Shown piece after piece: positions 1,984 through 51,661 of a stretch of DNA of 60,985 nt. Numbering within the stretch: position 1 is the first letter of the stretch; each line of letters opens with the position of its first letter. The translations under genes were made by a program, and so were the position numbers. The stretch comes from Deltaproteobacteria bacterium (GTDB taxonomy: Bacteria > UBA10199 > SPLOWO2-01-44-7), in contig JAUSII010000116.1 of NCBI GenBank assembly GCA_030648035.1, positions 1 through 60,985 of the forward strand. The letters are read 5' to 3'. The notes beneath the pieces are model-generated. The model searched no databases. It had not been told where the DNA came from and saw nothing but the letters and a program-made list of their open reading frames with translations.

Positions 1984-2010
1984 TTATCGTCACAATGCAG
2001 AAAAAGTTGC
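1984..2010 (-). promoter_or_regulatory. Putative alternative-sigma promoter (GCAAC-N16-CGATAA) for the DGR target gene
   Basis: GCAAC TTTTTCTGCATTGTGA CGATAA; the same 27-bp pattern recurs at 8430, 24064 and 51635. Confidence 0.65.
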
Positions 2011-2121
2011 TTCATCAAACATAAAAATTTTTATGACTTTTTTATAGTGGAGTGTAAAAAGGACTGAAGTGCAAAAATTTCAAATAATTCCGGCTAGTTA
2101 TCTGATGACCGCTTTGTGTTT

Positions 2122-2715
2122 CTAACTCATCTCGCGTCTCTGCTCCAGCGCTTTGGCCAGAGTGGAGGCGTCCAGGTATTCGAGTTCGCCGCCGACGGGG
2201 ATGCCGGAGGCGAGGCGGGTGATGCGCACTCCCAGGGGTTTAAAGAGGCGGGAGAGATAAAATGCGGTGGCGTCACCTTCCACATTGGAGTTGGTCGCCA
2301 GAATCAACTCTTTGGGGCCGCCGTCTTTCAGGCGCTCCAACAATTCCTTCACCTTTAAATCATCGGGGCCGATGCCATCCAACGGGGAGAGAGCGCCGTG
2401 CAAGACATGATAGCGGCCGCGAAAGCTCGATGTCTTTTCGACCGCGGTCACATCGGAGGGCTCTTCCACCACGCAAATCAGATGGGCCTCGCGTCTTGTA
2501 TCAGAGCAGATACGGCACGGGTTTTCCTGCGTGATGTTGCAACAGACCTGGCAGAGTTTTATTTTTTCGTGCAGATCTTTCAGCGCCTCGCTCAAATCCC
2601 TTGAAATTTGTTTGGACGATTTGAGCAGAAAAAAAGCAAGCCGCGTGGCGGTCCGCTCTCCCACTCCGGGCAATTTGCCCAGGGCATAAATCAGTTTGTC
2701 GATGGGGCTGGTCAT
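2122..2715 (-). CDS. recR: Recombination mediator RecR
   Basis: LPGVGERTATRLAF HhH, CQVC..CRIC Zn finger, Toprim domain (VVEE, YHVLHGALSPLDG, GGELEYLD). Confidence 0.97.
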   Translation of the reverse strand: MTSPIDKLIYALGKLPGVGERTATRLAFFLLKSSKQISRDLSEALKDLHEKIKLCQVCCNITQENPCRICSDTRREAHLICVVEEPSDVTAVEKTSSFRGRYHVLHGALSPLDGIGPDDLKVKELLERLKDGGPKELILATNSNVEGDATAFYLSRLFKPLGVRITRLASGIPVGGELEYLDASTLAKALEQRREMS

Positions 2716-4301
2716 TCCTTGTTCTCCACACGCACCTCTTCGACGACCGCGCCGAGAATATTGGCGGCTTCACGGACTGAATCGTGCTTCAAGGCCGCCT
2801 CCTGCAATATTTTTCTGCGCGACTGCGTTTCATCCGGCAGGGGCACGCTGGAAGAAGTGGAATAGACCAGTTTCAATACATAGGGTTTTCCAAAAAATTT
2901 GAGAAAGATCGCCTCGACCTGTTTTTTGCGATCTTCTTCCATAAGCATTTCACCATAAATCGAACCGGTTTCAAAACCGATCTCAATGGCCATGGCCCCC
3001 ATCGAAACCAGACGCCCATGATTGAGAATGGAAATAAGACGCGGATTTTCTTTCTGGAGCCAGACGAGGAACGGGTCCCAAGTTTTGCCTTCGCTCTTTT
3101 CTTCTTTTATTACGGAGGACGTTGGAACAACGGATGGAGAGCTGACGCCCACCCCACCCGATTTGGCGACCCTTTCCAACTTGGCCAGAATCTCTTTGAG
3201 AGGGACCACCTCTGCAATCAGCGTCATCCGCACCAGCAACACATCAAAAAGCATTTTGGGAAACGAGGAACGGGCAATCTCTTCTGCACCCGCATAGGCG
3301 AGCGAAAAAAGCTGGTCGATCTCTTCGGGAGCGGCAAGCGCACTCATCTCTTTTAATGCGCGCACCTCTTCTTTGGCAAGCTCCGCCCAGTCGGGAACGT
3401 CACCCAACGTTTTTACCAGCAGCAAATTTCTAAAACCGGAAACCATATCAAAAGCGAGCCGATTCAAATCGGCCCCGGCCTGATAAAAAAGATGCAACTG
3501 CTCCAGCGCACTTTTCCGGTCTCTATTCAAAACCGCTTTCAACAATCCCCAAAACTGCGTGCGATCAAGAAAGCCGAGCATCGTTTTCAAATTTTCATAA
3601 CCGACGGTTTCACCCGAATAGGCAATCGCCTGATCAAACAGACTCTGCGCATCACGCAGGCTCCCGCCCGCCTCTTGCGCGACAAGGTGCAGAGCGTCGT
3701 CATCTATCGTCACCTTCTCCGACTCGGCGATTTTTTTGAGATCGATGACCAGTTCTCCCACCGGAATTCGTTTGAAGTCATAACGCTGACAGCGCGACAA
3801 AATAGTGGCGGGAATTTTATGGACCTCGGTGGTGGCAAAAATAAAAATCACATGCGGCGGCGGTTCTTCGAGCGTCTTGAGCAGGGCATTGAAGGCGGGA
3901 GCTGAAAGCATGTGGACTTCATCGATGATATAAATTTTGTAGCGGCCTTTGGCGGAAAGATATTTCACCTTTTCGCGAATTCCACGAATATCCTCAACGC
4001 CGTTATTGGAAGCGCCGTCGATCTCCTGCACATCCATCGACCGACCTTCCAGAATATCGACGCACATCGCACACACATTACAAGGTTCTCGGCTTCCAAT
4101 TCCCTTTTCGCAATTGAGCGCCTTTGCCAGAATGCGCGCGACGGTTGTTTTGCCGATGCCGCGTGCGCCGGTAAAAAGATAGGCATGATGAATGCGCCCG
4201 GTGGCCAGTGCGTTCTGCAAGGTCTGCGTGACATGAATCTGCCCGATGACCTCTGCAAAAAGTTGGGGGCGATATTTGCGGGCTAAGACCTGATAAGACA
4301 T
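2712..4301 (-). CDS. dnaX: DNA polymerase III subunit gamma/tau
   Basis: MSYQVLARKYRPQ, GARGIGKTT, IIDEVHML, LLKTLEEPP, SRC motif. Confidence 0.98.
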   Translation of the reverse strand: MSYQVLARKYRPQLFAEVIGQIHVTQTLQNALATGRIHHAYLFTGARGIGKTTVARILAKALNCEKGIGSREPCNVCAMCVDILEGRSMDVQEIDGASNNGVEDIRGIREKVKYLSAKGRYKIYIIDEVHMLSAPAFNALLKTLEEPPPHVIFIFATTEVHKIPATILSRCQRYDFKRIPVGELVIDLKKIAESEKVTIDDDALHLVAQEAGGSLRDAQSLFDQAIAYSGETVGYENLKTMLGFLDRTQFWGLLKAVLNRDRKSALEQLHLFYQAGADLNRLAFDMVSGFRNLLLVKTLGDVPDWAELAKEEVRALKEMSALAAPEEIDQLFSLAYAGAEEIARSSFPKMLFDVLLVRMTLIAEVVPLKEILAKLERVAKSGGVGVSSPSVVPTSSVIKEEKSEGKTWDPFLVWLQKENPRLISILNHGRLVSMGAMAIEIGFETGSIYGEMLMEEDRKKQVEAIFLKFFGKPYVLKLVYSTSSSVPLPDETQSRRKILQEAALKHDSVREAANILGAVVEEVRVENKE

Positions 4302-4330
4302 GCTTGACTGGTAACTTAGTTAAAAGTTAG

Positions 4331-4768
4331 ATGCAAGAGATGAAAAGGATTATCTGTCTGGATATCGGCGACAAAAGAATCGGTATCGCCATGAGCGACC
4401 CGTTTGGCATGACCGCGCAGGCGCTGGCCACCCTTCAACGCACCACCTTTCGCGCCGATGCCGCCAAAATTCTGGAAATTCTGAAAGAATATCAGGTCGG
4501 TCTGGTTCTGATCGGCCTCCCCCTCAATTCCGAAAGCCAAGAGGGTCCGCAGGCCAAAAAAGTGCGGCATTTTGAGGGGGGCCTGGCAAAATTCTTGAAA
4601 GAGAAGAATCATGCCGCCACCATCGAATGGGTCGATGAAAGTTTTTCCTCCAGAGAAGCGGAGGTTTTTCTTCTGGAAGCCGATTTGAGCCGAAAAAAAA
4701 GAAAAAAGGTGATCGACAAAATGGCGGCCGCCGTCGTTTTGCAGAATTATCTGGATGAACATGGTTAA
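4331..4768 (+). CDS. ruvX: RuvX/YqgF pre-16S rRNA nuclease
   Basis: LDIGDKRIGIAMSD, GLPL, DESFSS, DKMAAAVVLQNYLD. Confidence 0.95.
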   Translation: MQEMKRIICLDIGDKRIGIAMSDPFGMTAQALATLQRTTFRADAAKILEILKEYQVGLVLIGLPLNSESQEGPQAKKVRHFEGGLAKFLKEKNHAATIEWVDESFSSREAEVFLLEADLSRKKRKKVIDKMAAAVVLQNYLDEHG

Positions 4769-6352: not shown

Positions 6353-8409
6353 GAGGCCCTCCACTGACGTCCCATGATGCGCTCAAATTCTTGTGGCGAA
6401 GTGATTCCCTTCATCACCAGTCGTCTGGCCGACTCACGAAGCAGGACAACGCCGGCCTCGGTCAGAGATCTCTCTGCGTCATCGCGTAATTTTATATCCT
6501 CGGCTCCACTGAACACATAGGCCAGCACTTCGTTTGTCGGCGGAACAACTTCATAAATGCCGATGCGCCCATTGTATCCGGTATTCTTGCACTGCCTGCA
6601 TTTTCCACTACTGAAAATTTCGGCGCGAGCCAGACTCTCCCGTGTCATCCCCAGAAGATCGGCAACAGTGGATGGATCGGATATTTTTTGTCGACAGTGC
6701 GGCTCTGTGCAGAGTCGTCGCACGAGTCTTTGCGCCACAATCCCCCTCAACACGTCGGCCAACATATGACCCGGAACTCCCATCTTCACCAAACGTTGCA
6801 CCGTGGAAAGAGCATCGTTGGTATGCAACGTGGAAAAAACAAGATGGCCTGTATCGGCCGCCTCCACTGCAATCTGCGCTGTTTCAGGATTCCGAATTTC
6901 ACCAAGCATGATGATGTTGGGATCGGAGCGCAAAAAAGAATGCAACGCCTTTTCATAAGTCAGCCCTCTCTCAATTTGCATCTGTTCTACACCACCCGGC
7001 AGTCTATATTCCACCGGATGTTCCGCGGTGAGGATATGTATGTCGGGCCGGGCCAATTCTGTTATCAAGGATGCAAGCAGAGAGGTCTTGCCGGAACCGG
7101 TGGGTCCGGTCACCAGAACCAGACCGTTGGGCTGTGAAGCAAAAGCTCTCAACATTCCCAGTTGCACTCCATCCATTCCCAAACCATCCAAGTCAAAAAT
7201 TTTCTGCGATCTTAAAAGTCTCATGGAAATGGCAGGGCCGTAAATGGTGGGACGGACCTCCGCGCGCACATCCATTGTTTCATCCCCGACCGTCCATTGA
7301 AAAACGCCACCCTGTGGAACCAGATGTATTTTGTCTGTCTCCATGTGGGCATCCGTTGCCAATTTTCTTACAACTCCTTGGGCATATGGAAGCAATCGGG
7401 CTTCATAATCTGCAAGATAAAGCGGTTCCAAAAGACCGTCTCTGCGAATGCGAACGGAGAGTCGTCCTTTTTGGGGGGCAATATGAATATCGCTGGTCCC
7501 TCTTCTATAAGCCTCATCCAAAATATTTTTAACAAGCTGAAGCACAAAAGGACTTTGCTCCGTAATCTGCTGGCTGGTATCGGCCCCAGCGGCGCGAACT
7601 GGAGCAGTACCAATATTTTCTATCGGCACAGGAGCGGCCGGCTTCGTCGCTCCGTCCTGACCATAAACGCGTTCGATCCCCACTTTGATTTCATGTTCAA
7701 AAGCAAAGACTGCTTGAATGGTATAACCGGTTGCAAAACGAATTTTGCCCAACAGTTCCAAATCCTCCGGCGAGGAAACAACAACATACAGAATACTTCC
7801 ACTCCGCATATAGGGTAGAACACCCAGCTCCAGCGCCTTTGCCTTTGGAAAGTTTGAAAAAATATCTCCCATATCTGCAGGCATGCCATCCGTTAAAACT
7901 TCCGCCACATTGATAATGGGAATTCCGGTATCGGTCGTATGCTCGCTCAAAATAATTCTCAAACGATGAAGTTTTTCCTCTTCTCTAGCGGCATTCCAAT
8001 GGCGCCCAATCACCGTCCAGAGAAAAGCGCCTCCCCTCGATGCGCTGATCCAACCCCGTATTTGAAGCGGAGTGGCCAAATTTTCGCTCAAGAGCTTTGC
8101 TACAATTTTCTGTTGTGCCGGGAGTGAAGAGGGAGGTTGTGTCACTGGCGCAATTTCACCGCCGGATGAAGGGCCGCCATTTCCCATTGCATATATTCGG
8201 TCGGGGATCGCCGCGAAGAGAGACGCGCGATCTGGTTTGGAAGGAACTCGGGATTGAAGCCAGGCAATAGCGGCAGGCTCCAGAACATCGGCCGGTGCCT
8301 CTGAATGGGGAACCGTCACGGGTATCACAAGGGAATCCAAAGCAGACGCAAGATTGGCCGTGGTGCAAAAAATTTCTGCAGAAAGGGCAACGTCACCGAT
8401 GACTCTCAT
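6349..8409 (-). CDS. GspE/PilB-family secretion/pilus ATPase with atypical N-terminal extension
   Basis: SDIHI.P, GPTGSGKT, EHPVEY, LRSDPNIIMLGEIR, TGHLVFSTLHTN, Zn-binding CxxC and GRIGIYEV; start at 8409 follows GGAGG. Confidence 0.9.
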   Translation of the reverse strand: MRVIGDVALSAEIFCTTANLASALDSLVIPVTVPHSEAPADVLEPAAIAWLQSRVPSKPDRASLFAAIPDRIYAMGNGGPSSGGEIAPVTQPPSSLPAQQKIVAKLLSENLATPLQIRGWISASRGGAFLWTVIGRHWNAAREEEKLHRLRIILSEHTTDTGIPIINVAEVLTDGMPADMGDIFSNFPKAKALELGVLPYMRSGSILYVVVSSPEDLELLGKIRFATGYTIQAVFAFEHEIKVGIERVYGQDGATKPAAPVPIENIGTAPVRAAGADTSQQITEQSPFVLQLVKNILDEAYRRGTSDIHIAPQKGRLSVRIRRDGLLEPLYLADYEARLLPYAQGVVRKLATDAHMETDKIHLVPQGGVFQWTVGDETMDVRAEVRPTIYGPAISMRLLRSQKIFDLDGLGMDGVQLGMLRAFASQPNGLVLVTGPTGSGKTSLLASLITELARPDIHILTAEHPVEYRLPGGVEQMQIERGLTYEKALHSFLRSDPNIIMLGEIRNPETAQIAVEAADTGHLVFSTLHTNDALSTVQRLVKMGVPGHMLADVLRGIVAQRLVRRLCTEPHCRQKISDPSTVADLLGMTRESLARAEIFSSGKCRQCKNTGYNGRIGIYEVVPPTNEVLAYVFSGAEDIKLRDDAERSLTEAGVVLLRESARRLVMKGITSPQEFERIMGRQWRAS

Positions 8410-8429
8410 AAAATCAACCTCCACCATCC

Positions 8430-8456
8430 TCTTCGGCTACGCTAAAAAAAAGTTGC
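8430..8456 (-). promoter_or_regulatory. Putative alternative-sigma promoter (GCAAC-N16-CGAAGA)
   Basis: GCAAC TTTTTTTTAGCGTAGC CGAAGA, 20 nt upstream of ATG 8409. Confidence 0.65.
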
Positions 8457-8470
8457 CTACAATAAATCCA

Positions 8471-8839
8471 CTACAATAAATCCGCCTTTAAGCGGGTGGC
8501 CACAGCACTTGTGATGCGGTAGCCGACAGAAATAATCATGTCGAGGTTGTAGTATTCGATACTGCGCTGGACATTGCGATTGCCTTCCTGTCGAACTGTT
8601 AAGAAATCCTTAATAGTTGCCTCAGGCATAAGCTCTGATTCTTCAAAAATATTCTTGATGTGCATGCTGATATTGGGGACTGTTGTCTGGAACAATTCGG
8701 CGATTTGCTGTTGGGGGAGCCAAACTGTTTCATTGTCGAGCCGCACATCGATTTTGATCTCTCCATCCTCGGTGGAATAGACAAGGAATTGGCCCTTGCC
8801 GCTGGTGGTTGTTAAGCTGTTTGTTTTCTTTTGGTTCAT
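8471..8839 (-). pseudogene. RhuM-family gene, C-terminally truncated
   Basis: ETVWLPQQQIAELFQ...YYNLDMIISVGYRITS matches the N-terminal third of the full paralogue at 39514-40554, then stops abruptly. Confidence 0.8.
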
Positions 8840-8871
8840 GGTTGTTCAACTTTCATTTTAATCTCCACGGC

Positions 8872-9669: not shown

Positions 9670-9678
9670 AGTGTTTCC

Positions 9679-10395
9679 TCATTCCTTCCACGCCTCTGCC
9701 CCAAGAGGCAGCTCGTTAAGTTCTGCACGGGCTTCGCGCCATGTTGGATAGTGATGAGCCAGTAGTTCCAAGAATCGCTCACTATGCGTGGGCTCAATAA
9801 GATGTAGCATTTCGTGAACAATAACATATTCAACAAGGTCCTTTGGCTTCTTCACTAACTCTGTGTTGAGTCGAATGTGTCTCATCTTTGGGTTGCAGCC
9901 ACCCCATTTGGTTTTCATGCGTTGCAAAAAGTACGTTTTGACTTTCACTCCGAGCTTTGGCTCCCATTTGGCGATCACAGATGGAACAAACTCATGAAGC
10001 AATTTTTTGTGCCATTCGTGCATGATCTGTGATTTTTTCACCTGATGGCTGGCAGGTCGTACACAAAGCGTGATCCGCTTGTGATCGATAATTACAGATG
10101 GTTTGGCATTTTTCTCAACCACGTTCAGCAAATGTCTGCGGCCCCACAAAAAGTGGCTTTCTCTTTCAATAAACTTCCTCGGGGATTCTCTTTCCTGACC
10201 AAGAAGTATCTCTTGTTGCCGCCGAATCCATTCAAGTTTGGAAATCGCATAGGCCCGTGCCACTTCAGTCCGGATGTTGTTGGGTACTGCGAGCGTGACT
10301 CGGCCATCAGGCGGATGGACCGACAAGTGAACATTCTTGATGGCCTTGCGGGTTACCTGAATGGCAATATCTCCAAGTTCGATGGTTTCAATCAT
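9679..10395 (-). CDS. M48/YgjP-family metallopeptidase commonly following hsdR
   Basis: [20 protein letters not shown] (HExxH), HSERF. Confidence 0.9.
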
Positions 10396-13300
10396 GTGTA
10401 CCTCGGCTGATTCTTGATAATTTCAAAAATGGCCCGCGTTGCCTTGCGATCCCTGTTCAAAAGTGGAAACAAGGCATTCAAAACCTGCTTTTCTCGAGTG
10501 TCGTCTCCCTTCCAGCCTGCCGGTGCCTTTTCTCTCATGGCAAGGTCGATCTGAAGTGCCAATGCAGACCGCTCATCATTGTCAGCAGGACATTGGAATG
10601 TATCGGTCTCAATATGTTGGAGATTGTTATACAGCACGATGGCGCTTGGATGCCCGTTGAGCCCAGACGGATGATCTGCTTTGTTATCCTTTTTTGCCAT
10701 GCGATGAACAAGCGCCTCTGCCTTCTTAAGCCATTCTTCATACGCCTCGGTGCTGTCCCTTTTTTGATCAATGAGATCGCCTAGCAACTTGGATATTTCT
10801 TCGTAAAATCTTGGGTCGGTAAGCTGATCCCGGATGATTGTCTTGCGGACGTTGTTGATAATTCCTTCAGCAATGGCGTTTTTTGAAAGTTTTCCTTTTT
10901 CGTTGAGTTTTCTTGCAATGGCATCGTGAATGCCGGTCTCAATAATCATTTCAACAAGTGTGTAATTATCCAGGGTGCCCAAGGGATCCACAGGGTCAGC
11001 CTGAATGTAAGAATTGAGGAGATGACGCATGTCTGCTTCGTAGGGCTTGATATCAAGCTCTTCGCCGGAATGTCGTTTGATGGCCGCTCGTATGTCGCTA
11101 AAGAAAATTACTTCATTGTTGAGAGTTGCAATTTCAGCAGAGGAGTAGCCCGCTTCTGACAAATCCTGGGAAATCTCCGCAAATGCGCGCACAAAACCGG
11201 CCACCGTTTTGTAAAAAGCAATCCTCAATGCTTCCGTGTTGTTTAATGCATTCGGATCATTAGCTTCTCCACAAAAATAATGCAGGTACTGCTCGACTTC
11301 ACGTGGATGCGGAACAGGGTCACAAAGATATTTCAGGCTCTCGCGGGCAACATCTAGTTTTTTTCGGCCTTCTTCGAGCCAGTTCTTGATTTTGACATTA
11401 TTGTCGCCTTTGCCATCTTCGTCGATATCCAGCTCGTCGGAGTTGTAAATCGCGATGACTTCCTGCACGTCACCTAATAATTCTTTATAGTCCACAATGT
11501 AACCGTAATCTTTATCCTCACCATCCAGCCGATTTGTCCGACAGATGGCCTGAAACAGGTTGTGATCATGCAGTTCATTATCGAGGTAAATATAGGTACA
11601 GGATGGCGCATCAAAACCAGTCAGGAGCTTACTGACAACCACCAATAATTTGCAATTTGCAGGTTCTTCGATAAATCGTCGTTTGATTTCATCTTCGTAT
11701 TGTTTCGTTGTCTGGTTATTTTCCAGCACAAATTGGGTGTAGGTATCAAACTTGTATCGCTCGTCACTATTGGCAGGCTCACGGGAAATCGCATTGTGAT
11801 TGGGTTCATACGACGTGACAATGCCGCAGTATTGGCCAAATGCCGTATTTTTGAACAGGCGGTAATAGTGACACGCATCGTAGATTGATGCCGCCACAAG
11901 GATGGCTGTGCCACGGTCATTGTTGAGACGCGGCTTTAGGGTGAAGTCTTCAATGATGTTGGCCACAATGCGTTGTTTGCGTTCTCCGGCACTCATTAGC
12001 TTTTCCAGAGTCGCCCATGTCTTGCGCACAATGGCTTTCTGAAAATTATTCAGATTTTTTGTTTTCTGTTCAAACCACGCATCAATGGCCGCCTGAGAAG
12101 TCAGGCGTTGCGGCACATTGCGGGCTTCGTATTTTAGGTCTAATATCACCTTGTCCGCAACCGCTTCATGGAATTTGTAGGTGTGTATGTAGGTACCAAA
12201 AATATTCCGTGTGGTCTGTCTGTCCTTGAGCAAGAGCGGTGTACCGGTGAAACCTATGAAAATGGAATTCTCTAGCCAGCGTTTCATTTGTTTGTTCATG
12301 TCACCACCCTGGGTACGATGACATTCATCAACGAAGACATAGAAGCGTCCGAAAAGAGAGGGTGGTGGGCCTTGCAAATCTGCCGGATCGAATTTGTGAA
12401 CAAGGGCACACAGCAAGCGGGGCATGGTGGCGCCAATTTTGGAAACAAATTCAGCCCGTGTCGTGATGCGCGGTGACGGCGAATTGGTGCCAATCACACC
12501 GGCATTCTTCATCACGCCCTCGATTTGTTTGTCGAGTTCGTCGCGATCAGTGACCACGAGCACGCGCGCCTCGGGATCAAACTCCATCAACCATTTGGCG
12601 ATGAGCACCATCAAAATGCTCTTGCCGCTTCCTTGGGTGTGCCAGATCACGCCACCTTCTTTAAGACGAATTCTTTCTTGAGCGGCCTTGAAACCAAAAT
12701 ATTGATGGGGGCGGGGCACTTTCTTTTGGCCCCCATCATAAATAATGCAGTTCCTGAGAAGATCGAGCAGACGTTCTTTGTTACACATCTGAGCAATGGG
12801 TTTATCTAAATACTCACCTCTCCCAATGGCATTCTTGCCAAGAGTACCGGTCTCATCTTTCCATTCCACAAAAAATTGTTCCGGCGTGCCCGTGGTGCCA
12901 TAGCGCAGACCTTGGGAGTCACTGCCAGCAAAAACAAATTGCACTGTTGAGAAAAAACCCTTGTTGAAGATTTCTTCCTGATTGGTGATGAGCTGACGAA
13001 CACCATCGCCAATTTCTACGGAGCTACGTTTGAGTTCGATCACACCGATAGCAATGCCATTGAGATACAGTACCAAATCGGGCCTGCGCTCATACCCACC
13101 CTTGAGCGTCACTTCTTCGGCCACACCAAAATCGTTTTTGTCTGGATTGTCCCAATCAATCAAATGAACGGTTTCGTGGGCTTGACCTGCAGCAATTTGC
13201 ACCGGCACGCCATAGCGCAATAATTGATAAGTGCGAAGATTGGCCTGATAAAGCTCAACGCCCGTACTGTCGGCAGCGGTTTCCAGCTTTTGCAGGGCTA

Positions 13301-13496
13301 CCGAAATATGGGTATCGGAATATTCGCGTTTTTTCAGGTTAGCTTTAAGGAGTTCTGTTTCGATATTCCGGTTTTTTTCACGCTTCTGCCAATCGCCAAG
13401 GTAGTCATAGCCGAGATAATCCGGATGAGTTTTATCCGTAAACAGTGAGATAACACGATTTTGAGTCAAACGCTCTGAGCGTGGTTTAGTGGACAT
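10392..13496 (-). CDS. hsdR: Type I restriction endonuclease subunit R
   Basis: [15 protein letters not shown] nuclease, [35 protein letters not shown]. Confidence 0.97.
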
Positions 13497-14775
13497 GATT
13501 AACCTCCGGCGTGACAAGGCGTGTTTTACCCGTGAGCAGTTCCTGCATCATGGCCTGCTTGAGGGCGCGGGTCTTCTCCCGCCGCTGTTCCAACACTACC
13601 AGCTCCGCGTCCATCTCCGTCAGCACCTCGGCGATGGCGGTTTGTTCGGGGAGTGCGGGCAATCGAAGCGGTGACTTGAGAAGCGCAACCTTGGACAAGT
13701 TGTAGCGGGTCGAGCCTTGAGCGAGTGACTTCATCAACTCGCGGCCTTCTTTACTCCTGAGGTAGTAAGCCAAGAACAATTCATCGGCCTCAGTGCCATC
13801 GTGAAACCGAAAGCCAAAGCAAAAGCTGTTCAAGTAAACGTCTCGAACTTCATCAAGCAGCACCGAACACATGGCGACTTCTTCGGGGGTCTCTGATGAG
13901 CCATTGAAGAACAGGTCGCCCTTTTTTGCGCGATTCTGAGACTCCGTCGGCGAGAGCTGCACATGCTCGAACGTTCCGCAATCAATCACGACGTTCGACA
14001 TGACGTTCATGAAAGTGATGTAACGCGCAGAACCTTCGCCAAAGTCGGCTTTGGTTTTGCCGGTCAACCCGCCATAAGTTGACCCCACATCCCCCAGCCG
14101 CTTCACCTCCCACTCGCCGTGGAAGCCGGGGAGGCGGGTTTGGCCCGTGAGGAGTTGCTGCATGGCGGCCTGTTTGAGGTCGCGCTTCTTGGTGATGAGC
14201 TTGTCGAGGCTTTCGAGAAGGACATCGACATCAGAGAGGGCGGTGGCGATGGCGTGTTGTTCGGGAAGGGATGGAACGATAATCTGAAATTTTAATAAGT
14301 CTCGCGTGTAAATAGCAGCAACACTTGTAGTTCCAGTCGCGAGACCACGTAGGCGAGAAATCGCACCCTCTGTATTCATCGAGTAGTTTGCATATTCATT
14401 TGAGCAAACTTTCTTTTGATCGAACTCTAACCGCATGAGGTTGGAGTTGTAGTAAGCGCGTGGAAGCTCAGCTCGCCAAATGGCAACTTTACCGACCAAG
14501 TCCAATGTGTTTCGCGTATTAAACAAAACATCGCCATAAACGAGCCGGTGTGTTGGTTCTGGCATCACACCTGGGGTGATGAACTGCACTTTCGACAGGT
14601 CGAAATTTCCACGAGCAAGATTTCCCATCTTCATTAGTGGCAGTTCACCCTCCACGTCTTGATTCGCGTAATTTCCTCCAAGTCGTCCTTTTAACAGGAC
14701 CGTACCGAGTGGTTTTAGATCCCAATCCTCCGGAATAACACCCACCTCGGTATGCTTATAACCGGGCTTCACCAT
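13486..14775 (-). CDS. hsdS: Type I RM specificity subunit S
   Basis: EVGVIPEDW, two TRDs with repeated EQ.AIA..L...LKQA.MQ.LLTG.TRL helices. Confidence 0.96.
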
Positions 14776-17264
14776 ACCGCTCCCATTCTCTTCAAATGCC
14801 CCTCAACAAGGGTGGAGAATTCGGCGACTGATTCTTCCAGTTTGGGCAGAGGTGTTTCATAGCGTTCCGCGAGCTGGCGAATTCTTCCGGTGAGCGTTTG
14901 TGAAACACGATCGAGTTCGCCTTGTACAGCAGTAGCAATTGTGGCCAACCATTTGTCATCCACGACAAGTGTTTTGATTTCGCTCTCGGTGAGTTTTGGG
15001 TATTTCTCGGCAATTTTATTTTCTAAATCTTCCTGTGCCGCTTTAAGACTGGTTTTAATGGTGGCTTGCCGCTCCAAAATCACAGCATAGTCTTGAAGTG
15101 CCTGCCGCTCATCATCGTAATCAGGATCTTTACCGATTTCCTTGAGTCGAGCCTTCACTCCCTTGACGGTGATCTTTTGTTTGTCGCCTTCACCTTCAAT
15201 CACTTCCGCAAGCAGTCCATCCTCGCCACTTTGTTCCTCGCGCTTTTCGTCAAGCTCTTGTTCAATGGTGGCAAGTTCGGATTCAAAGCCTGATATGACA
15301 TCGCGCTCGCCGCTGAAGTAGCGGGCAATCAGAATTTCAGCAGGAACAAGATCCGATTTGAAACGGCGATTGCCGCGCTTGAAATCTTCTTTTTCTGGCC
15401 AGACAAGTTTATTATCTTTGTTTTTGATCTGACAAATTTCTCGAGGCGGGGCGCCTTGCTGCCAGCCAACTGCAGAAATCAGGTAAGCGTCGTCCTGCAT
15501 GGTTTCTGCCCAATAATCCATCATGTGTTGATAGATATCGTAGGCATCCAGCAGAGGTGCAGACTTGAAAGTGGCGAGGAGACTTTCGGCAATGTTTTCA
15601 ATAAGCGCCTTGGGATGACCGTTTTGATCAAAGCCATTCAATTGCAGCGCATTGGTTTTTTTCCAACCGGCAAAAAGCAAGGTGGCCGATTTGTGGAATG
15701 CAGTAAATTCGGGGTGACTAAAAATGGCAGGCTTCACTTCAGTGATGGGAAGCGGCAGCTGATAATAACCGGAGCGGAGTACCTTGAACAGTGCTATGCG
15801 CAAGCCGGGCATGATCTTCCAGTATTTAGCCAGCGCATCAATATCGTATTCAGGGATGCCGCCACGCAAGTGCCCGTCTATATCCTGCAAATCTTCAGGT
15901 TCTGTACTGTCGATGTAACGCGGGAGATTGAGGTTGTAGTCATTCTTTGGATTCGCAATCTCTTCAACAGGTACCATCCGAGCATAACGCGGATTACTTT
16001 CATCCTGCCGTCTAAATATGTCCACGATCTTGTGGATGTCCTGTTCACGCAGTCGATTTTTTGGACCATCCTTGCGAAACCCCTTTGAAGCATCAATCAT
16101 GAAAATACCTTTGCGTGCCGTGGCATTTTCTTTGTCGAGCACAAGAATGCAGGCAGGAATACCGGTTCCAAAAAAAAGATTGGCCGGCAAACCAATGATG
16201 CCCTTGAGAATGCCAGAGCGCACAAGTTGCTGGCGGATGCTGGCCTCGGCATTCCCTCTAAAAAGCACACCATGTGGAAGAATGCAGGCCGCTTTACCGG
16301 TGCTCTTCATGGAGCGAATGATGTGCAAGAGGTAAGCGTAATCGCCTTTTTTTTTGGGCGGCACTCCCCATGTAAAGCGCTGGTAGTCATCGCCTTTGCC
16401 GCTTTCACCAAGCGTGAGGCCTGTGGACCAAGTTTTGTCTGAAAAGGGTGGATTCGCGACAACATAATCATAGGTGCGGAGTTGCACGCCATCGAGAAAT
16501 TTGGGCTTCACCAATGTGCCTTCACCACCGGATTGAATGTTCGCGGTGGGAAAATCATGCAGGATCATGTTCATTCGGGCAAGACCAGCGGTCGTGCTGT
16601 CCTTCTCTTGCCCTTCAAGTGTAATTCGCTTTCCTGATTCAGCTGCGACTTTTAACAACAATGAACCAGAACCACAGGTCGGGTCGTAGGCGGTTGTACC
16701 CGCAACTGTGTTTGCGGGTGATACGCCCAGCACCTTGGCAATGATGCGACTGACTTCCGAAGGAGTATAAAACTGTCCCTTGCTTTTACCGCTCTGCGTG
16801 GCGAAGTGCCGCATCAAATATTCGTAAGCATCACCAAGAATGTCATCATTTTCAGCACGGTTTTGAGAGAAATCTAGTGCAGGGTTTTCAAAGATACTGA
16901 TAAGGTTTCCAATTCTTTCAACCTTTGCTGGACCATCACCAAGTTTGTTTGGGTCATCAAAATCCGGAAAATCACTGCGAGCAAGATTGGTATTGGAGTC
17001 AACCAGAGGCTTGATTACCTGAGTATTAATGAGCTCGCCGATATTCGATTTGCCTTTGAGTGCAGCCATGTCTTTGAAAGTCGCACCCTTTGGTATAACA
17101 ATCGGTGGCTCAAAGCCGTCATAGTCTGCATATTTGTCGGAAACATATTTGATGAACAACATGAACAAAACGTAATCTTTGTATTGGCTAGCATCCATGC
17201 CGCCCCGCAATTCATCACAGGATGCCCAAATGGAGGAGTAGAGATCTGATTTCTTAAGTGCCAT
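14769..17264 (-). CDS. hsdM: Type I RM methyltransferase subunit M (long form)
   Basis: GQFYTP, DPTCGSG, NPPF, PHGVLFRG. Confidence 0.97.
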   Translation of the reverse strand: MALKKSDLYSSIWASCDELRGGMDASQYKDYVLFMLFIKYVSDKYADYDGFEPPIVIPKGATFKDMAALKGKSNIGELINTQVIKPLVDSNTNLARSDFPDFDDPNKLGDGPAKVERIGNLISIFENPALDFSQNRAENDDILGDAYEYLMRHFATQSGKSKGQFYTPSEVSRIIAKVLGVSPANTVAGTTAYDPTCGSGSLLLKVAAESGKRITLEGQEKDSTTAGLARMNMILHDFPTANIQSGGEGTLVKPKFLDGVQLRTYDYVVANPPFSDKTWSTGLTLGESGKGDDYQRFTWGVPPKKKGDYAYLLHIIRSMKSTGKAACILPHGVLFRGNAEASIRQQLVRSGILKGIIGLPANLFFGTGIPACILVLDKENATARKGIFMIDASKGFRKDGPKNRLREQDIHKIVDIFRRQDESNPRYARMVPVEEIANPKNDYNLNLPRYIDSTEPEDLQDIDGHLRGGIPEYDIDALAKYWKIMPGLRIALFKVLRSGYYQLPLPITEVKPAIFSHPEFTAFHKSATLLFAGWKKTNALQLNGFDQNGHPKALIENIAESLLATFKSAPLLDAYDIYQHMMDYWAETMQDDAYLISAVGWQQGAPPREICQIKNKDNKLVWPEKEDFKRGNRRFKSDLVPAEILIARYFSGERDVISGFESELATIEQELDEKREEQSGEDGLLAEVIEGEGDKQKITVKGVKARLKEIGKDPDYDDERQALQDYAVILERQATIKTSLKAAQEDLENKIAEKYPKLTESEIKTLVVDDKWLATIATAVQGELDRVSQTLTGRIRQLAERYETPLPKLEESVAEFSTLVEGHLKRMGAVW

Positions 17265-22749: not shown

Positions 22750-24053
22750 GAAGTGACAGACCCCGTCTTTGCCCGAACACTCTCCGCCCCCTGTGTATCC
22801 CCAAGTTCTGTAAAAATCGCCAAGGCCTCTCCCAAAAGGATGGCGCAGGTTAATTGGATATTTGCAAATGTCGCGGCAGAAAAAGTTTGCGTCGACAAGT
22901 GGCGTTCCCGATACAAGACAGCGGCAAGTAATTTCGTTTCAGCCTGCATGCGCCTCACTTCTTGCGAGAAATAATGCATTTCCAAAGAGTCGATTTTTGC
23001 CGCCATCTCTTCAGCCTTTTGAAAATAACCACAGGCCAACTTCAAAAAACTGGGCGGAAGATGGGGAAGATCGGACACCAGACGATAAAGAACTCTCCCC
23101 GCTTCATAATTTAAAATCGCAACATCTTGTGCGTCCTTTTTGCGTTCCCGAATGGTCATCCATTCCATAAATATGGAGAAGGCATTCAACATGACAAGAA
23201 GAGTCCCCTTTTCTGCGGCGGCTTTGGACAATTGTTGCATCTGTATAAAATCCGATTTGAAAATCAATTCTGAAGCACGGACATATTGTCTGCGCTCCAT
23301 ATAGGCCCTGGCAAGCATCCGATACATCATGACAATATTTTGCAGATGTTGCGACGGATTGAGAAATCCAAGCACTTCAGTCATATTTTTTTCAGCCTCA
23401 TCGTAATTATCAAGCAGAACTTCCACATGGGCAAGCGAAGTCAAAAAACTAAGCAGTTTGACTGGTTGCACTCCCTCACGCGCTTCACGAATGACATTCA
23501 TGGCCAGCGTTCTGGCAAATTGGAGAGACTCCAAAGCCCTCTCCCGATTTTCCCCAAAAGACTCCAGATATTTTGCCCGAAAAATCAAAAAATGAAGGGC
23601 CGCGTCTTTCTCATCTTTATGCAATGCAATGGCTATCAACTTCCGGCAGATTTCCGGAATATATTCTCCCGCCACTTGTTTAAGATTGGCGTTTGGATCA
23701 TTCGATGCAATTTCGCTGTAGCGTTCGAATGCCTCCACACCTTTTTTTAAAACAGCTTCGTCTTCCGATGCCGCTGCATCTTTGATCATCTTTTCAAACG
23801 AAGGAATGATAGCGGCCGCCAATGCAGAGGCGTTAACCGCAGGAGAGAAAGAAACAGGAGAGGACAAAAAAAGAGGGGCATATACCGGCTGTGTGCGGGG
23901 CTGCTGAAGCTCGCGCAAACGGCGGAGGTCATCAATCATCCAAGCTTCAGGAATAGTGTCATCGGGAGCCACCATTAAAAGGGAATCAAGAACACCCGTG
24001 CAAATGGAGGCAAAAGGAACAACCGATAAAGCAACATCATTAAAAAGGGCCAT
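22746..24053 (-). CDS. Helical/TPR-like hypothetical protein
   Basis: Long ORF with amphipathic helical repeats; start set at MALFNDVALS, downstream of the promoter motif. Confidence 0.7.
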   Translation of the reverse strand: MALFNDVALSVVPFASICTGVLDSLLMVAPDDTIPEAWMIDDLRRLRELQQPRTQPVYAPLFLSSPVSFSPAVNASALAAAIIPSFEKMIKDAAASEDEAVLKKGVEAFERYSEIASNDPNANLKQVAGEYIPEICRKLIAIALHKDEKDAALHFLIFRAKYLESFGENRERALESLQFARTLAMNVIREAREGVQPVKLLSFLTSLAHVEVLLDNYDEAEKNMTEVLGFLNPSQHLQNIVMMYRMLARAYMERRQYVRASELIFKSDFIQMQQLSKAAAEKGTLLVMLNAFSIFMEWMTIRERKKDAQDVAILNYEAGRVLYRLVSDLPHLPPSFLKLACGYFQKAEEMAAKIDSLEMHYFSQEVRRMQAETKLLAAVLYRERHLSTQTFSAATFANIQLTCAILLGEALAIFTELGDTQGAESVRAKTGSVTS

Positions 24054-24063: not shown

Positions 24064-24090
24064 TCTTCGGCAAGTAACAAAAAAAGTTGC
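24064..24090 (-). promoter_or_regulatory. Putative alternative-sigma promoter (GCAAC-N16-CGAAGA)
   Basis: GCAAC TTTTTTTGTTACTTGC CGAAGA, 10 nt before ATG 24053. Confidence 0.65.
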
Positions 24091-43884: not shown

Positions 43885-43906
43885 TATTTTGTTTCCTCAA
43901 AAATTC

Positions 43907-45972: not shown

Positions 45973-46054
45973 AAATCATTAAGGACAAATTGGCGTGATA
46001 TTTTAAGCCCAAGTTTGACAGTAAATCACTGACAATGGCTGAAATAACTCTCTA

Positions 46055-46672: not shown

Positions 46673-46692
46673 AATTTTAATGTGGAGGTGAC

Positions 46693-48865: not shown

Positions 48866-48927
48866 GGGGCCTCTTCTGTCACGACTCCCTTGCCAAGACA
48901 ACAGAAAATTTGCTACAGGCTCAAGGC

Positions 48928-49989
48928 GTGACCGCTCCTTTTACCCCTACCCACATTTATATCGACCAGGCGGTTGTTAACTTGCCGCTGACGAACAAAA
49001 TTCTGGGATATTTTCCAAATATCGTTCCGCAGATTGTCGATGATCCCAAAAAATTCAAAGAGCCGGCGGAAATGACTTGGGCAAAAAAAGGACTCATGCT
49101 TGCACGACACAAAGCCGACACTGTTTTAAAATCGTTTGATGCGGTGGGGGAGAGTTGCGGGCGTCCGGTCTATTCTCTCGATATTATTTCCAACTGTCAT
49201 CTGGAATGCACCTATTGCATTTTGCAAAGTTATTTGGCCAACAATCCGATGATCACGATCTTCACCAACATCGAAGAAATTCTCGAAAAACTGGACCACC
49301 AAATCAAAGATATCCCCGACAACGCTATCATCGGCACCGGCAGAATCGCAGACAGCCTCGCTTTGGATCCGATAACAAATTTAAGCTCGCACCTTGTCCC
49401 CTTCTTTGCCGGGCTTCAAAAAAATGTTCTGCTGGAATTTAAAACCAAAAGCGACTCCGTTGAAAATTTGCTGACACTCGAACACAACCAGAAAACCATT
49501 GTCTCTTTCTCACTCAACCCCGAAGAGATTCAAGAGAGGGAAGAATTTAAAACGGCCACCATCGAAGAGAGGTTAAAAGCGGCCGGTCGATGCGCAAAGG
49601 CCGGATACAAAATCGGTTTTCACCTCGACCCGATGATCTTTCATGAAAACTGGAATAAAAATTATCGGAGACTTGTCGAAAATATTTTTGAGACGGTCTC
49701 ACCGGAACAGATCGCGTGGATGAGTCTGGGACTTCTCCGTTTTCCCGCGCGCCAACAGACGATCATGAAAAAACGTTTTCCAAAAAACGCCGCCATCCAC
49801 GAAGGATTGGAACACACCCATCTCCCCTATCGAACCTATTCCAAAAATTTGCGTGAAGAGATGTTGACGACCGTCGCCTCTTTTATAAAGAGCAGGGCCC
49901 CAAAAGTGGAACTCTATTTCTGTATGGAGTCTGAAATGAACTTGAGATCGACCACCGCCAACCCCTTGTCTGTCGCGATAAACCAGTAG
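48928..49989 (+). CDS. Spore photoproduct lyase-family radical SAM protein
   Basis: NCHLECTYCILQ (CxxxCxxC), DSLALD, LEFKTKS, GFHLDP; start codon uncertain. Confidence 0.85.
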   Translation: MTAPFTPTHIYIDQAVVNLPLTNKILGYFPNIVPQIVDDPKKFKEPAEMTWAKKGLMLARHKADTVLKSFDAVGESCGRPVYSLDIISNCHLECTYCILQSYLANNPMITIFTNIEEILEKLDHQIKDIPDNAIIGTGRIADSLALDPITNLSSHLVPFFAGLQKNVLLEFKTKSDSVENLLTLEHNQKTIVSFSLNPEEIQEREEFKTATIEERLKAAGRCAKAGYKIGFHLDPMIFHENWNKNYRRLVENIFETVSPEQIAWMSLGLLRFPARQQTIMKKRFPKNAAIHEGLEHTHLPYRTYSKNLREEMLTTVASFIKSRAPKVELYFCMESEMNLRSTTANPLSVAINQ

Positions 49990-51623
49990 TTGCCGTCGGT
50001 ACTGACCGCAGTGGGTCCCAGAATTTTTGGAGAGGACTCCTCTTCACTTTTTTTGAAGAGTGGAATTGCGGAACCGATTTCCAGTTTATCCGAAGAGATG
50101 GAATAGATTTGAGCATCGGCCGTCAGCGCAAAAATGGTTCTGGAGTCGGGCGAGAAAACACCGGCCACAAATTGCGGCGTTATTTTTCCTTCTGCCACCT
50201 GCAAATCGCCCAGAACATTGAGCTGATGAGTCAACAGCTGGTTGCCGGAGAAAAAATAACCCATCTTGGCGTCAAAGCAGGCGGCATCCGAAACTTTAAG
50301 ATCACTTTGCGGCGTCATCGGCTCAAAACCTTTTGCACCATATTCCCAAACCTGCGCCAGATTTATCGAAGTGCTGATCGCCAGAATACGATCATGCATG
50401 GGCGAGCGGACGAGTTTTTCAAAGGGGACCTCCATGCTCTCTTGCGAAGAGAGTGCACCGTTTTTTGCATCGACAAAAACAAGGCGGCGTTTTTTATCCT
50501 GTGTCTCGACCAATGCCATCAGATGATCTTCACTGCCAAACGCCGCAGAGAGACAGCGCACCGACGGAGGCAGGGCGATTTGCATCGCCACAGGGCTGTT
50601 GTCGATCTCGCCGACCAGATTAAAAAGACCAATCTGGCTTAACGTCTGGTGGCAAACGGCAACCCGCGAGCCTTGTTGGCTGACATCAACCGTCGTGGCA
50701 AAATCTTCCACCTCTATTTTTTTGAGCGTTCCATCGGAGAGAAAAAAACCGATATTCTTGTCATCCGCAAATCCGATCATCAGACTTTGAATCAACGGAT
50801 TAAAAACAAGAGAGCTCACCCTGTTTTCCATGGGAACCAGATTGACGAAGGAAATGTTGTGTTCAAGCGGCACCAGACTTTGTGCCACAATATCCTCCCC
50901 TTTTTTAATTACGATCAAAGCATCTTCATCGATGGGCTGATCGATATGAAACTGTGCTTCAAACGGAGAGACCGGTTCCAGCGGAAAAGAGGCCGAGCCC
51001 AGAGAGACCTTCAAACCGGTGTCGGGTGTTATCGGAAAATTAAGTCCCTTCAAAACAATTTTATCTTTCCACGCCGCCTTGTCGGGAGAAAAAGAGAGGA
51101 TCAGCGGCTTATCGGTGCCGGAGTCATCCATCGTGGCAATGATGTCGCCATTCAATTCGATGCCTTCCACCATCGCTTTTTTCACATGAATAATAATGGA
51201 AGAGCCGGGGACGATGCCTGTTTTTTCAAAAGTGATATCGCCCTGACTGGCAACGAGCGTTGCCTTTTGCGGAATGGAATAGTGGACTTGGAGTTCTGCG
51301 TGGGACGCCAATGTGACATCCTGTGGAAAAAAATCAAATAACGAAACGGTGAGATTTAAATATCTTTCCCCCTTGGGATCACCAACATCAATCGTCACCT
51401 TTTTATTTTCAAGATCGAGATGTGCCGTCTGGGGTTGTGCTTTGAAGAGATCAAGATTATCAGCTTCCTCTTTTTTTCCCTCTGCCACCGCTTCCTGACG
51501 CAAAACTTCGTCCGATCCAAGAGTGGTTTGCGCCACCGGCAGGCTTCCGTCTTTGCAACCGGCGCCCAAAATCAGCCCCGCCCCACAAACCGCCAAAAAC
51601 AGGTGATAAGTCCATTTTTTCAT
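49914..51623 (-). CDS. Lipoprotein with IPT-like and beta-propeller-like regions
   Basis: Lipobox-like GAGC after a hydrophobic stretch; ILSFSP...I.L.G.NF; repeated FSPD/VSTDG blades. Confidence 0.75.
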   Translation of the reverse strand: MKKWTYHLFLAVCGAGLILGAGCKDGSLPVAQTTLGSDEVLRQEAVAEGKKEEADNLDLFKAQPQTAHLDLENKKVTIDVGDPKGERYLNLTVSLFDFFPQDVTLASHAELQVHYSIPQKATLVASQGDITFEKTGIVPGSSIIIHVKKAMVEGIELNGDIIATMDDSGTDKPLILSFSPDKAAWKDKIVLKGLNFPITPDTGLKVSLGSASFPLEPVSPFEAQFHIDQPIDEDALIVIKKGEDIVAQSLVPLEHNISFVNLVPMENRVSSLVFNPLIQSLMIGFADDKNIGFFLSDGTLKKIEVEDFATTVDVSQQGSRVAVCHQTLSQIGLFNLVGEIDNSPVAMQIALPPSVRCLSAAFGSEDHLMALVETQDKKRRLVFVDAKNGALSSQESMEVPFEKLVRSPMHDRILAISTSINLAQVWEYGAKGFEPMTPQSDLKVSDAACFDAKMGYFFSGNQLLTHQLNVLGDLQVAEGKITPQFVAGVFSPDSRTIFALTADAQIYSISSDKLEIGSAIPLFKKSEEESSPKILGPTAVSTDGNYWFIATDKGLAVVDLKFISDSIQK

Positions 51624-51634
51624 GTTCACAGGGA

Positions 51635-51661
51635 GTATCGGCAATTCCAGAAAAAAGTTGC
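51635..51661 (-). promoter_or_regulatory. Putative alternative-sigma promoter (GCAAC-N16-CGATAC)
   Basis: GCAAC TTTTTTCTGGAATTGC CGATAC, 11 nt before ATG 51623. Confidence 0.62.

Follow-up and report, generated by a model that had tools for sequence, protein, structure and literature searches.

A recurrent sigma-28-like promoter motif, its candidate sigma factor in a non-flagellar type III secretion cluster and a largely orphan predicted regulon in a UBA10199 bacterium

The stretch of DNA analyzed here (60,985 nucleotides; the window in what follows) is contig C53 (GenBank JAUSII010000116.1) of a metagenome-assembled genome (MAG) from the UBA10199 lineage, which comprises 2.39 Mb in 135 contigs with 48.8% GC, 95.9% completeness and 5.8% contamination. 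It carries four copies of a 27-base motif that, on the evidence set out below, is very likely the promoter of a FliA/WhiG-family sigma factor paralog encoded in a non-flagellar type III secretion system (T3SS) gene cluster on another contig. The exact pattern GCAACTTTTT-N11-CGA matches the window exactly four times, always on the minus strand (1987-2010, 8433-8456, 24067-24090 and 51638-51661), and has no match in 100 dinucleotide-preserving shuffles of the window. With the three bases after CGA added, these matches are the four 27-mers of the original prediction, which had described them as minus-strand, intergenic and each facing a gene; pattern matches and a reading of the flanks both agree. 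The full -10 box GCCGATAA is present in none of the four, one having GACGATAA, one GCCGATAC and two GCCGAAGA. The copies, with their position weight matrix (PWM) scores, the start sites predicted from them and the genes that they face are as follows.

1 to 669, minus strand: reverse transcriptase gene, cut by the contig end (Pfam PF00078, E 6.2e-8)
555 to 929, minus strand: bAvd, accessory gene of a diversity-generating retroelement (DGR), in the same orientation as the target and 38 nt downstream of it (Pfam PF22296, E 1.1e-19)
968 to 1873, minus strand: FGE-sulfatase (C-type-lectin-like) protein, the presumed DGR variable protein (Pfam PF03781, E 1.4e-38)
1874 to 1976, minus strand: predicted 5' leader of the DGR target gene, 103 nt, with a stable hairpin (minimum free energy -35.7 kcal/mol)
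1976, minus strand: predicted start site of copy 1, a G with T before it; leader of 103 nt
1984 to 2010, minus strand: motif copy 1, an exact match, with -35 GCAAC at 2010-2006 and -10 GACGATAA at 1991-1984; PWM 35.4 bits
6349 to 8409, minus strand: PilB/GspE-type secretion ATPase, 686 aa (Pfam T2SSE, 7.4e-92, and MshEN), with an extra N-terminal region of ~180 residues
8422, minus strand: predicted start site of copy 2, a G after T, then GGAGG, then ATG at 8409; leader of 13 nt
8430 to 8456, minus strand: motif copy 2, with a weak -10 GCCGAAGA; PWM 21.5 bits
22746 to 24053, minus strand: 435-aa orphan, 0 Pfam families, N-terminus without Lys/Arg
24056, minus strand: predicted start site of copy 3, 3 nt before the ATG at 24053
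24064 to 24090, minus strand: motif copy 3, with -10 GCCGAAGA, its first base following the stop codon of the YbaB-like gene upstream without a gap; PWM 25.1 bits
49914 to 51623, minus strand: 569-aa orphan lipoprotein, N-terminus MKKWTYHLFLAVCGAGLILGAGC..., with a lipobox LILGAGC read by eye
51627, minus strand: predicted start site of copy 4, a G after T, 4 nt before the ATG at 51623
51635 to 51661, minus strand: motif copy 4, with -10 GCCGATAC; PWM 36.3 bits

Copy 1 precedes what had been called a DGR target. Gene order and domains (FGE-sulfatase, bAvd, reverse transcriptase) support that label, while the variable repeat/template repeat pair expected with it was not found in the window: there is no direct repeat of at least 40 nt in 1-2100, and local alignment of the target 3' end against the avd/reverse transcriptase region gave only a weak 36-nt match, with no template repeat visible between the two genes. 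Completeness of the DGR cannot be confirmed from this assembly because the contig ends inside the reverse transcriptase gene and no template repeat is seen; the template repeat may sit past the contig end. The presumed variable protein has no Lys or Arg among its first 30 residues. The hairpin in its leader is a member of a small repeat family with nine further partial copies in the genome (blastn), and similar GC-rich palindromic elements are seen ahead of the ATPase ortholog in G021, mentioned below, and, on contigs C42 and C97, in leaders behind the motif.

The genes behind the other three copies were assigned earlier as a PilB-like ATPase, a TPR-like protein and a lipoprotein. The T2SSE match and the lipobox bear out the first and the last, and the Pfam scan of the 435-aa protein behind copy 3 gave neither a TPR domain nor any other family. 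The ATPase likely starts at 8409, with GGAGG before it, rather than at the 8427 of the ORF list. It has one ortholog (42% identity, in genome G021) in the 60 other genomes searched, the other matches being paralogs. The 569-aa lipoprotein, scanned in a 571-aa form (49914-51629), has no Pfam family, and searches of the 60 other genomes in the phylum sample described below gave, at E<=1e-5, no homolog of it or of the 435-aa protein.

Scanning the whole genome for a looser form of the motif, as the original prediction had proposed, gave 95 copies of GCAACTTTT-N12-CGA. The spacer hardly varies in length: CAACTTT-N13-CGA(T/A)A is found 90 times, with one more base 9 times and with two more 12 times, and only 0-3 times at all other lengths from 8 to 19. 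A matrix of 94 sites gives the consensus AAGCAACTTTTTT-N8-G(C/A)CGATAA, in summary form AAGCAACTTTTTT-N8-GCCGATAA. Positions that the search left free are also conserved in these sites, namely AA preceding GCAAC, two extra T after the T run and, in the -10 block, where CGA alone was fixed, G (84 sites), C or A (58 and 27), T (78), A (83) and A (80). Flanking conservation is absent, save for a T-purine pair 7-8 nt past the -10 box. In a two-block PWM scan that allowed spacers of -1 to +2, with the reversed genome as the null, 161 sites reached at least 18 bits against 3 in the null, and 144 against 0 reached at least 22 bits; the main spacer accounts for 138 of the 170 matches at 16 bits or more.

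Eight motif pairs stand back to back, 8-94 nt apart, and face genes both ways; in the C59 pair the two -35 boxes nearly touch. The pairs, by contig and position in this genome (G000), are:

C42:9528/9551, divergent motif pair
C22:39407/39441, divergent motif pair
C87:3397/3491, divergent motif pair
C59:74363/74373, divergent motif pair
C30:13803/13865, divergent motif pair
C108:8639/8647, divergent motif pair
C119:8668/8715, divergent motif pair
C133:9312/9377, divergent motif pair

The shape of the motif points to sigma-28. In the Pseudomonas aeruginosa sigma-28 fliC open complex, the two elements are given as (-15)GCCGATAA(-8) and (-36)TCTAAAG(-30) (PMC12784957), and GCCGATAA is described as the flagellar/sigma-28 -10 consensus (PMC8325347, PMC12784957). 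When the last A of our motif is set at -8, AAGCAAC falls at -36 to -30 and the conserved purine at +1, so that both boxes take the positions that they have in the fliC complex. The consensus contains the whole sigma-28 -10 element, including the extended -10 GC. In place of the -35 element TAAA or TCTAAAG described in the same sources, it has AAGCAAC and a T run. The earlier reading of a sigma28/FliA-like -10 half therefore stands, the match being to GCCGATAA, and the -35 half, which had been called ECF-like, is better read as a re-tuned sigma-28 -35. As a whole, the motif would be a sigma-28-class promoter with a re-tuned, non-canonical -35 box.

Its placement is that of a promoter. As a deliberately conservative gene mask we used the longest open reading frames (ORFs). 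These cover 91.9% of the genome, and the 8.1% outside them holds 113 of the 161 PWM sites, an enrichment of about 9-fold. The original prediction had allowed that the motif might prove no more frequent upstream of genes than inside them, and it is clearly commoner outside. A co-oriented ORF start follows within 260 nt at 157 of the 161 sites, and 95 of them have a T-purine step at the predicted -1/+1. Start codons peak sharply 8 nt past the box, the first qualifying start codon lying exactly on the predicted start site in 23 cases. Sorted by start rule, 52 sites have ATG or GTG within -1 to +2 of the predicted start, 90 have a start codon further on that is preceded by a Shine-Dalgarno sequence, 17 are unclear and 2 have none. 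Other genomes show the same features: among 122 sites in 114 motif-bearing stretches from public MAGs, 59 have the T-purine step and 22 a start codon at -1 to +2. A start codon on the predicted start site implies a leaderless mRNA, and on the basis of these predicted start sites we think it reasonably probable that many transcripts of the regulon are leaderless. Most of the other targets would have leaders predicted at 8-40 nt, beginning near the Shine-Dalgarno sequence. We know of no report of a sigma-28-class regulon with many leaderless transcripts.

Could the motif be no promoter at all, being instead a transcription-factor site or the conserved terminus of some small mobile repeat found by chance between genes? 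A short, highly conserved and intergenic sequence with eight back-to-back divergent pairs would suit such an element, and the genome does have other small repeat families. However, the two blocks are asymmetric and rigidly spaced, nearly every copy faces a downstream ORF with the start-codon peak at its fixed distance from the box, nothing is conserved outside positions -2 to +34, and the geometry is base for base that of sigma-28 as described for the fliC complex. Moreover, at orthologous positions across the phylum the boxes are conserved and the spacers vary. We consider a non-promoter element highly improbable.

If the motif is a promoter, which sigma factor reads it? Listing the sigma factors of the genome, as had been suggested, gave four proteins of the sigma-70 family: RpoD, RpoH, one extracytoplasmic function (ECF) sigma and one FliA/WhiG-like sigma. 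RpoN is also present. The FliA/WhiG-like gene lies outside the window, on a contig that also carries a FliG-like gene:

C103:1538-2389: FliA/WhiG-like sigma, 283 aa, within a T3SS gene cluster
C103:64-1026: FliG-like gene with FliG_M and FliG_C domains, beside the sigma gene

Among PDB sequences, the top matches of this sigma are 6pfj and 6pfv ("RNA polymerase sigma factor"), followed by FliA and WhiG chains. In a phylum sample of 61 genomes (22 families, 50 genera), all 61 have the motif, in 1-95 copies against 0-3 for the reversed pattern on either strand, and all 61 have an ortholog of the FliA-like sigma, at 53-80% identity.

The pattern GCAAC-N16-CGA superficially resembles an ECF promoter, with AAC at -35 and CG at -10, and the genome's single ECF sigma (C18:38390-38884) might be thought to read it. 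Its gene even lies about 100 nt downstream of a co-oriented, motif-bearing gene for an 1100-aa protein. In contrast to the FliA-like sigma, it has no ortholog in the phylum sample (identity at most 34%), and with it as query no ECF-like match was found in 23 of the 61 genomes, including all four same-family genomes (30-74 motif copies). A PF04542 search found RpoD and the FliA-like sigma only in G021 (69 copies) and G039 (30 copies), and one further unclassified match, a 313-aa open frame, in G028 (32 copies); a cognate ECF sigma that accompanies the motif is thus not seen. The 8-base -10 block is also identical to the sigma-28 box, and the arginine that reads the extended -10 GC in P. aeruginosa FliA (R97; PMC12784957) aligns with Arg130 of the C103 sigma. 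Genomes that carry 30-69 motif copies show no ECF sigma, which makes such a factor an unlikely reader; for this reason and for want of an ortholog we rejected the ECF reading, whose probability we put close to nil. The 1100-aa protein is lipoprotein-like (region C18:38390-42320), and the ECF sigma may be a downstream tier of the same cascade.

The textbook -10 box GCCGATAA (PMC8325347, PMC12784957), together with FliA_WhiG as the best-scoring family of the sigma, could equally suggest an ordinary flagellar class-3 (FliA) promoter, either a leftover or part of an active flagellar regulon. Yet this genome, estimated to be 96% complete, contains no flagellin (PF00669) or rod/hook (PF00460) domain, and the flagellar-type promoter pattern is not enriched in it (1-4 matches against 2-25 in the reversed null). 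Nor does the motif serve flagellin in relatives. Flagellin occurs in 9 of the 61 genomes, and none of the 12 flagellin-family loci of the flagellated relatives has CCGATA within 260 nt upstream. Instead, nine of the 12 have, by eye, T(A/C/T)A(A/G)G(T/C)T, about 12 nt and CCGT(T/C), a combination of the canonical sigma-28 -35 and a variant -10. Each of the five flagellated genomes tested holds two FliA-family genes. One is canonical (216-231 bits) and lies on the same contig as an FHIPEP (flhA-type) gene, within about 3 kb; the other scores 130-147 bits, below the family cut-off, and is the ortholog of the C103 sigma. FHIPEP genes themselves number at least two in the flagellated genomes tested and one in both the non-flagellated G021 and this genome. 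Since flagellin promoters differ and flagellated relatives hold a second, canonical FliA, we rejected the flagellar reading, which we regard as very improbable. The cognate factor would instead be a paralog in a non-flagellar T3SS cluster, distinct from flagellar FliA. The flagellin promoters of the nine flagellated relatives (loci L246-L255) read, by eye, T(A/C)AAGTTT-N11-(T/C)CCGT(T/C)nA, with CCGT for CCGA.

Residue differences between the paralogs parallel the difference between their promoters. In P. aeruginosa FliA, R97 reads the extended -10 GC and Q228 contacts -36/-35, and alanine substitution of Q228 cut transcription (PMC12784957). The equivalent of R97 in the C103 sigma, the Arg130 of GWIPR, is Arg in all 42 alignments that cover it (2 of 44 fall short). 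In region 4.2, S224 is conserved, Q228 is replaced by Arg250 and R225 by Trp247, the canonical ESRVSQ(L/I)H becoming KSWVSRLH. The helix LSKSW(T/V)SRLH is found in 41 of the 41 lineage orthologs retrieved, and the canonical paralogs of flagellated relatives keep (T/S)ESR(V/I)SQ(I/V). A changed -35 reader together with a changed -35 box is the pattern that would be expected of insulation between two paralogs, and the Gln-to-Arg residue may be the cause of the change in -35 specificity.

The genomic context of the sigma gene ties it to secretion. The order on C103 is a PEGA/TPR protein, small ORFs, a TPR chaperone-like protein, a YscJ/FliF-family protein, two small ORFs, a divergent NtrC-type sigma-54 activator, the sigma, a 185-aa ORF and the FliG-like protein. 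Among 44 related loci, the YscJ/FliF (SctJ) gene is retained in 29, a TPR gene in 29 and the FliG-like gene in 38; the NtrC-type activator gene adjoins the sigma in 3. The genome as a whole has one FHIPEP, one FlhB/SctU (Bac_export_2), one FliI/SctN, YscJ/FliF, a YscD-like FHA protein and three secretins. With core export genes present and no flagellin or rod genes, the system is a non-flagellar T3SS. A FliG-like gene is unusual for injectisomes, and a FliG-type rotor protein in such a cluster, in a genome without flagellin/rod genes, bears on the relation of the machine to flagella.

The motif also precedes T3SS operons. An identical long-spacer form, AAGCAACTTT-GGGCCCCAAGCCT-GCCGATAA, lies ahead of two operons of the cluster (C103:5033-5063 and 7153-7183), an arrangement of the HrpL type in which the sigma factor is encoded in the T3SS cluster whose operons carry its promoter. 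Of 41 related loci, 22 have motifs at the equivalent places, their boxes conserved and their spacers variable, and 7 of the other 19 are without upstream sequence; this was the sole case in which conservation at orthologous positions could be tested. About 25 other sites belong to the same long-spacer sub-class, with the same boxes, a spacer 1-2 nt longer and a G+C-rich stretch in place of the T run. The genes behind them mostly have Shine-Dalgarno starts, and the two T3SS-cluster copies are identical over 33 nt. The sub-class may serve to set the timing or the strength of apparatus-gene expression. As for the sigma gene itself, a check for the motif upstream of it had been suggested, and there is no copy; a sigma-54-type box, TGGCAT-N5-CTGCA, is found instead, about 40-55 nt before the ATG.

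The genes behind the motif are mostly orphans. The 159 predicted targets form 139 BLAST clusters, the largest with six members. Few of the 60 targets scanned against Pfam (the 59 top-scoring ones below 650 aa, with the DGR target added by hand) match any family: FGE-sulfatase was found three times, TPR twice, and GGDEF, AAA, LRR, SLT, trypsin-like, PP2C, PilZ, hydrolase and fn3 once each. LRR, PP2C, trypsin-like and SLT are effector-like domains. Two further FGE-sulfatase-domain proteins behind the motif (C118:1930-3108 and C42:8330-9433) are 26-32% identical to the DGR target and could be additional DGR targets or non-diversified paralogs.

What many targets do share is an N-terminus free of Lys and Arg. 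Residues 2-26 lack both in 52 of 155 targets, compared with 23 of 582 background genes having a Shine-Dalgarno sequence and ATG (odds ratio 12.3, p 7e-22). By class, this is so for 26 of the 52 leaderless targets and for 18 of the 89 with Shine-Dalgarno starts, a 5-fold enrichment in the subset that gives the fairest comparison, since start rules differed between targets and background. Ala, Ser, Thr, Asn, Pro and Gly are enriched in these N-termini, and the DGR target shares the signature. We read it, from its genomic context, as an export signal that the targets have in common, probably one for the T3SS. That the cargo is largely exported by the T3SS is plausible from these sequences, and we hold it with less assurance than the leaderless transcripts.

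A promoter of this kind may also control something quite different. The regulon could be developmental or stationary-phase, in the manner of the Bdellovibrio attack phase or of WhiG-directed sporulation, with the Lys/Arg-free N-termini reflecting, for example, some other route of secretion or a constraint that leaderless translation imposes. Several targets have domains not concerned with secretion (GGDEF, PilZ, PP2C, AAA, the PilB-type ATPase), some carry ordinary lipoprotein or Sec-like signals, and in Bdellovibrio 92 of 140 attack-phase promoters are reported to have the FliA motif, many of them at non-flagellar genes (PMC3627812). On the other side, the sigma is encoded in the T3SS cluster, and copies of the motif stand ahead of T3SS operons across the phylum. 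Further, the signature is not tied to leaderless translation, because it is 5-fold enriched in targets with Shine-Dalgarno starts as well. We see this as a real if rather doubtful alternative for the cargo; it leaves the promoter assignment as it is.

With a FliA/WhiG-family paralog from the T3SS cluster as the reader of the motif, the following chain of events is proposed. RNA polymerase carrying the paralog would bind AAGCAAC at -36 to -30 through a re-tuned region 4.2 and GCCGATAA at -15 to -8 through regions 2 and 3, and transcription would begin at the purine 8 nt past the last A of the -10 box. Some 160 such promoters would act in the 2.39-Mb genome, and in about one-third of them the start codon would lie no more than 2 nt from the predicted start, making the transcripts leaderless. 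The sigma gene would in turn be driven by sigma-54 and the neighboring NtrC-type activator, giving a three-tier cascade like HrpR/S to HrpL to hrp box, and the cargo would consist of T3SS apparatus operons and fast-evolving, mostly orphan proteins, the DGR variable protein among them. The original prediction of a lineage-specific sigma with a large and mostly orphan gene set that includes this protein agrees well with the roughly 160 copies, the rigid spacer, the ~9-fold enrichment outside ORFs and the FliA-family sigma in 61 of 61 genomes. In its fullest form, the scenario holds that in this deep-branching phylum the flagellar sigma-28 checkpoint was kept and duplicated for a non-flagellar T3SS, that the Gln-to-Arg change in the -35 reader insulates the duplicate from flagellar FliA, and that about 160 promoters, one-third of them leaderless, serve a species-specific secreted arsenal with a Lys/Arg-free export signal, including DGR-diversified proteins. 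Taken together in this way, these elements form a speculative proposal.

Several points weigh against this interpretation. The score of the C103 sigma against NCBIfam TIGR02479 (FliA_WhiG), 131 bits, does not reach the curated cut-off of 189.6, although no other family scores better. Agreement of the -35 region with TAAAGTTT is limited to AA at -32/-31 and the following TTT. Of the PWM sites, 48 of 161 lie inside longest-ORF calls and some may be intragenic or false, part of this number stemming from a crude gene caller that extends starts too far. What is said of start sites, leaderless mRNAs and the regulon as a whole is predicted from sequence, start codons were set by one rule for targets and by another for background genes, and the export signal is read from context. 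A search for the sigma-54-like box with a strict pattern and estimated gene starts found it in no more than 7 of 35 related loci. No FlgM-like anti-sigma was identified, neither the 185-aa gene beside the sigma nor any small gene of the cluster matching a Pfam or NCBIfam family. The ATPase ortholog in G021 has no motif upstream, and the promoter position is not conserved there. Finally, the MAG has an estimated contamination of 5.8%.

One further neighborhood in the window may be recorded here. A type I restriction-modification system occupies 9679-17264 on the minus strand, with HsdR at 10392-13517, HsdM at 14769-17264 and an ORF at 13486-14775 between them; it sits just downstream of a RhuM-family fragment (8471-8839).

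In a phylum without a cultured member, the motif offers a sequence handle, comparable to the hrp box, for listing a probable secretion-linked regulon: about 160 mostly orphan genes here and tens more in each relative. If the proposal is true, the motif would be an effector finder for the whole phylum, and these bacteria a living intermediate in the split between injectisome and flagellar regulation. Two sigma-28 paralogs in one cell, with different -35 boxes and a difference at the residue that structural work on P. aeruginosa identifies as the -35 reader (PMC12784957), would make a natural case of sigma-factor insulation. A FliA-family factor tied to a non-flagellar T3SS that keeps a FliG-like gene is relevant to the derivation of injectisomes, and of their regulation, from flagella. 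The presence in the regulon of the DGR variable protein, with the N-terminal signature of the orphans, suggests that targeted hypermutation acts on an exported protein. The predicted leaderless mRNAs would give a sigma-28-class regulon an unusual transcript architecture. In literature searches on this phylum, titles and the beginnings of abstracts showed nothing on sigma factors or T3SS regulation.

In mechanism, the closest known system would be, by analogy, the cascade from HrpR/S through HrpL to the hrp box in Pseudomonas syringae and Erwinia (PMC8228185). As described there, it too has an alternative sigma factor in a T3SS cluster and a two-block promoter on apparatus operons and dispersed, fast-evolving cargo; the HrpL gene has a sigma-54-type promoter beside an enhancer-binding protein (PMC8228185), and the C103 sigma gene may have the like. 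The factors themselves differ, HrpL being an ECF (group 4) sigma and the C103 sigma a member of the FliA/WhiG group. The promoter described here is sigma-28-like, unlike the hrp box, GGAACC-N-CCAC. Furthermore, the activator here is an NtrC-type protein with a receiver domain, one-third of the transcripts are predicted to be leaderless, and the present system is known from sequence alone.

In size and content of the regulon, the FliA attack-phase regulon of Bdellovibrio bacteriovorus is the closest (PMC3627812). There, TTAAG-N16-CCGATA is reported in 92 of 140 attack-phase promoters, mostly at non-flagellar genes for surface proteins, proteases and many unknowns (PMC3627812). Both bacteria have a small genome and a sigma-28-type motif ahead of some hundred promoters. 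In contrast, a single FliA in Bdellovibrio also runs the flagellum, whereas here the factor is a separate, T3SS-linked paralog that coexists with a canonical FliA in flagellated relatives, whose flagellin genes lack the motif; the -35 is GCAAC here and TTAAG there.

WhiG represents the co-option of a FliA-family sigma in non-flagellated bacteria, for sporulation in Streptomyces and type IV pili in Rubrobacter, with the -10 GCCGATAA kept (PMC8325347). WhiG-type regulons are small (12 verified promoters in Rubrobacter) and keep the TAAA -35, and their sigma genes are not known to lie in a T3SS cluster. In region 4.2, the WhiG chains compared have ESRVSQIH and the C103 sigma KSWVSRLH. Chlamydiae likewise combine a T3SS with sigma-28.

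The canonical class-3 promoters of E. coli, Salmonella and P. aeruginosa FliA, as represented in the sources cited above, share with the motif the same 8-bp -10 and the same box positions, and the Arg that reads GC is conserved. They differ in having TCTAAAG or TAAAGTTT at -35, where AAGCAAC stands here; the -35-reading Gln is Arg in our sigma, and the regulon contains no flagellar genes. Set beside all of these, what appears to be new is a dedicated paralog in a non-flagellar T3SS cluster, with a re-tuned -35 box and reader residue and coexisting with canonical FliA in flagellated relatives, together with a high share of predicted leaderless transcripts, an orphan cargo with a common N-terminal signature and a DGR target within the regulon.

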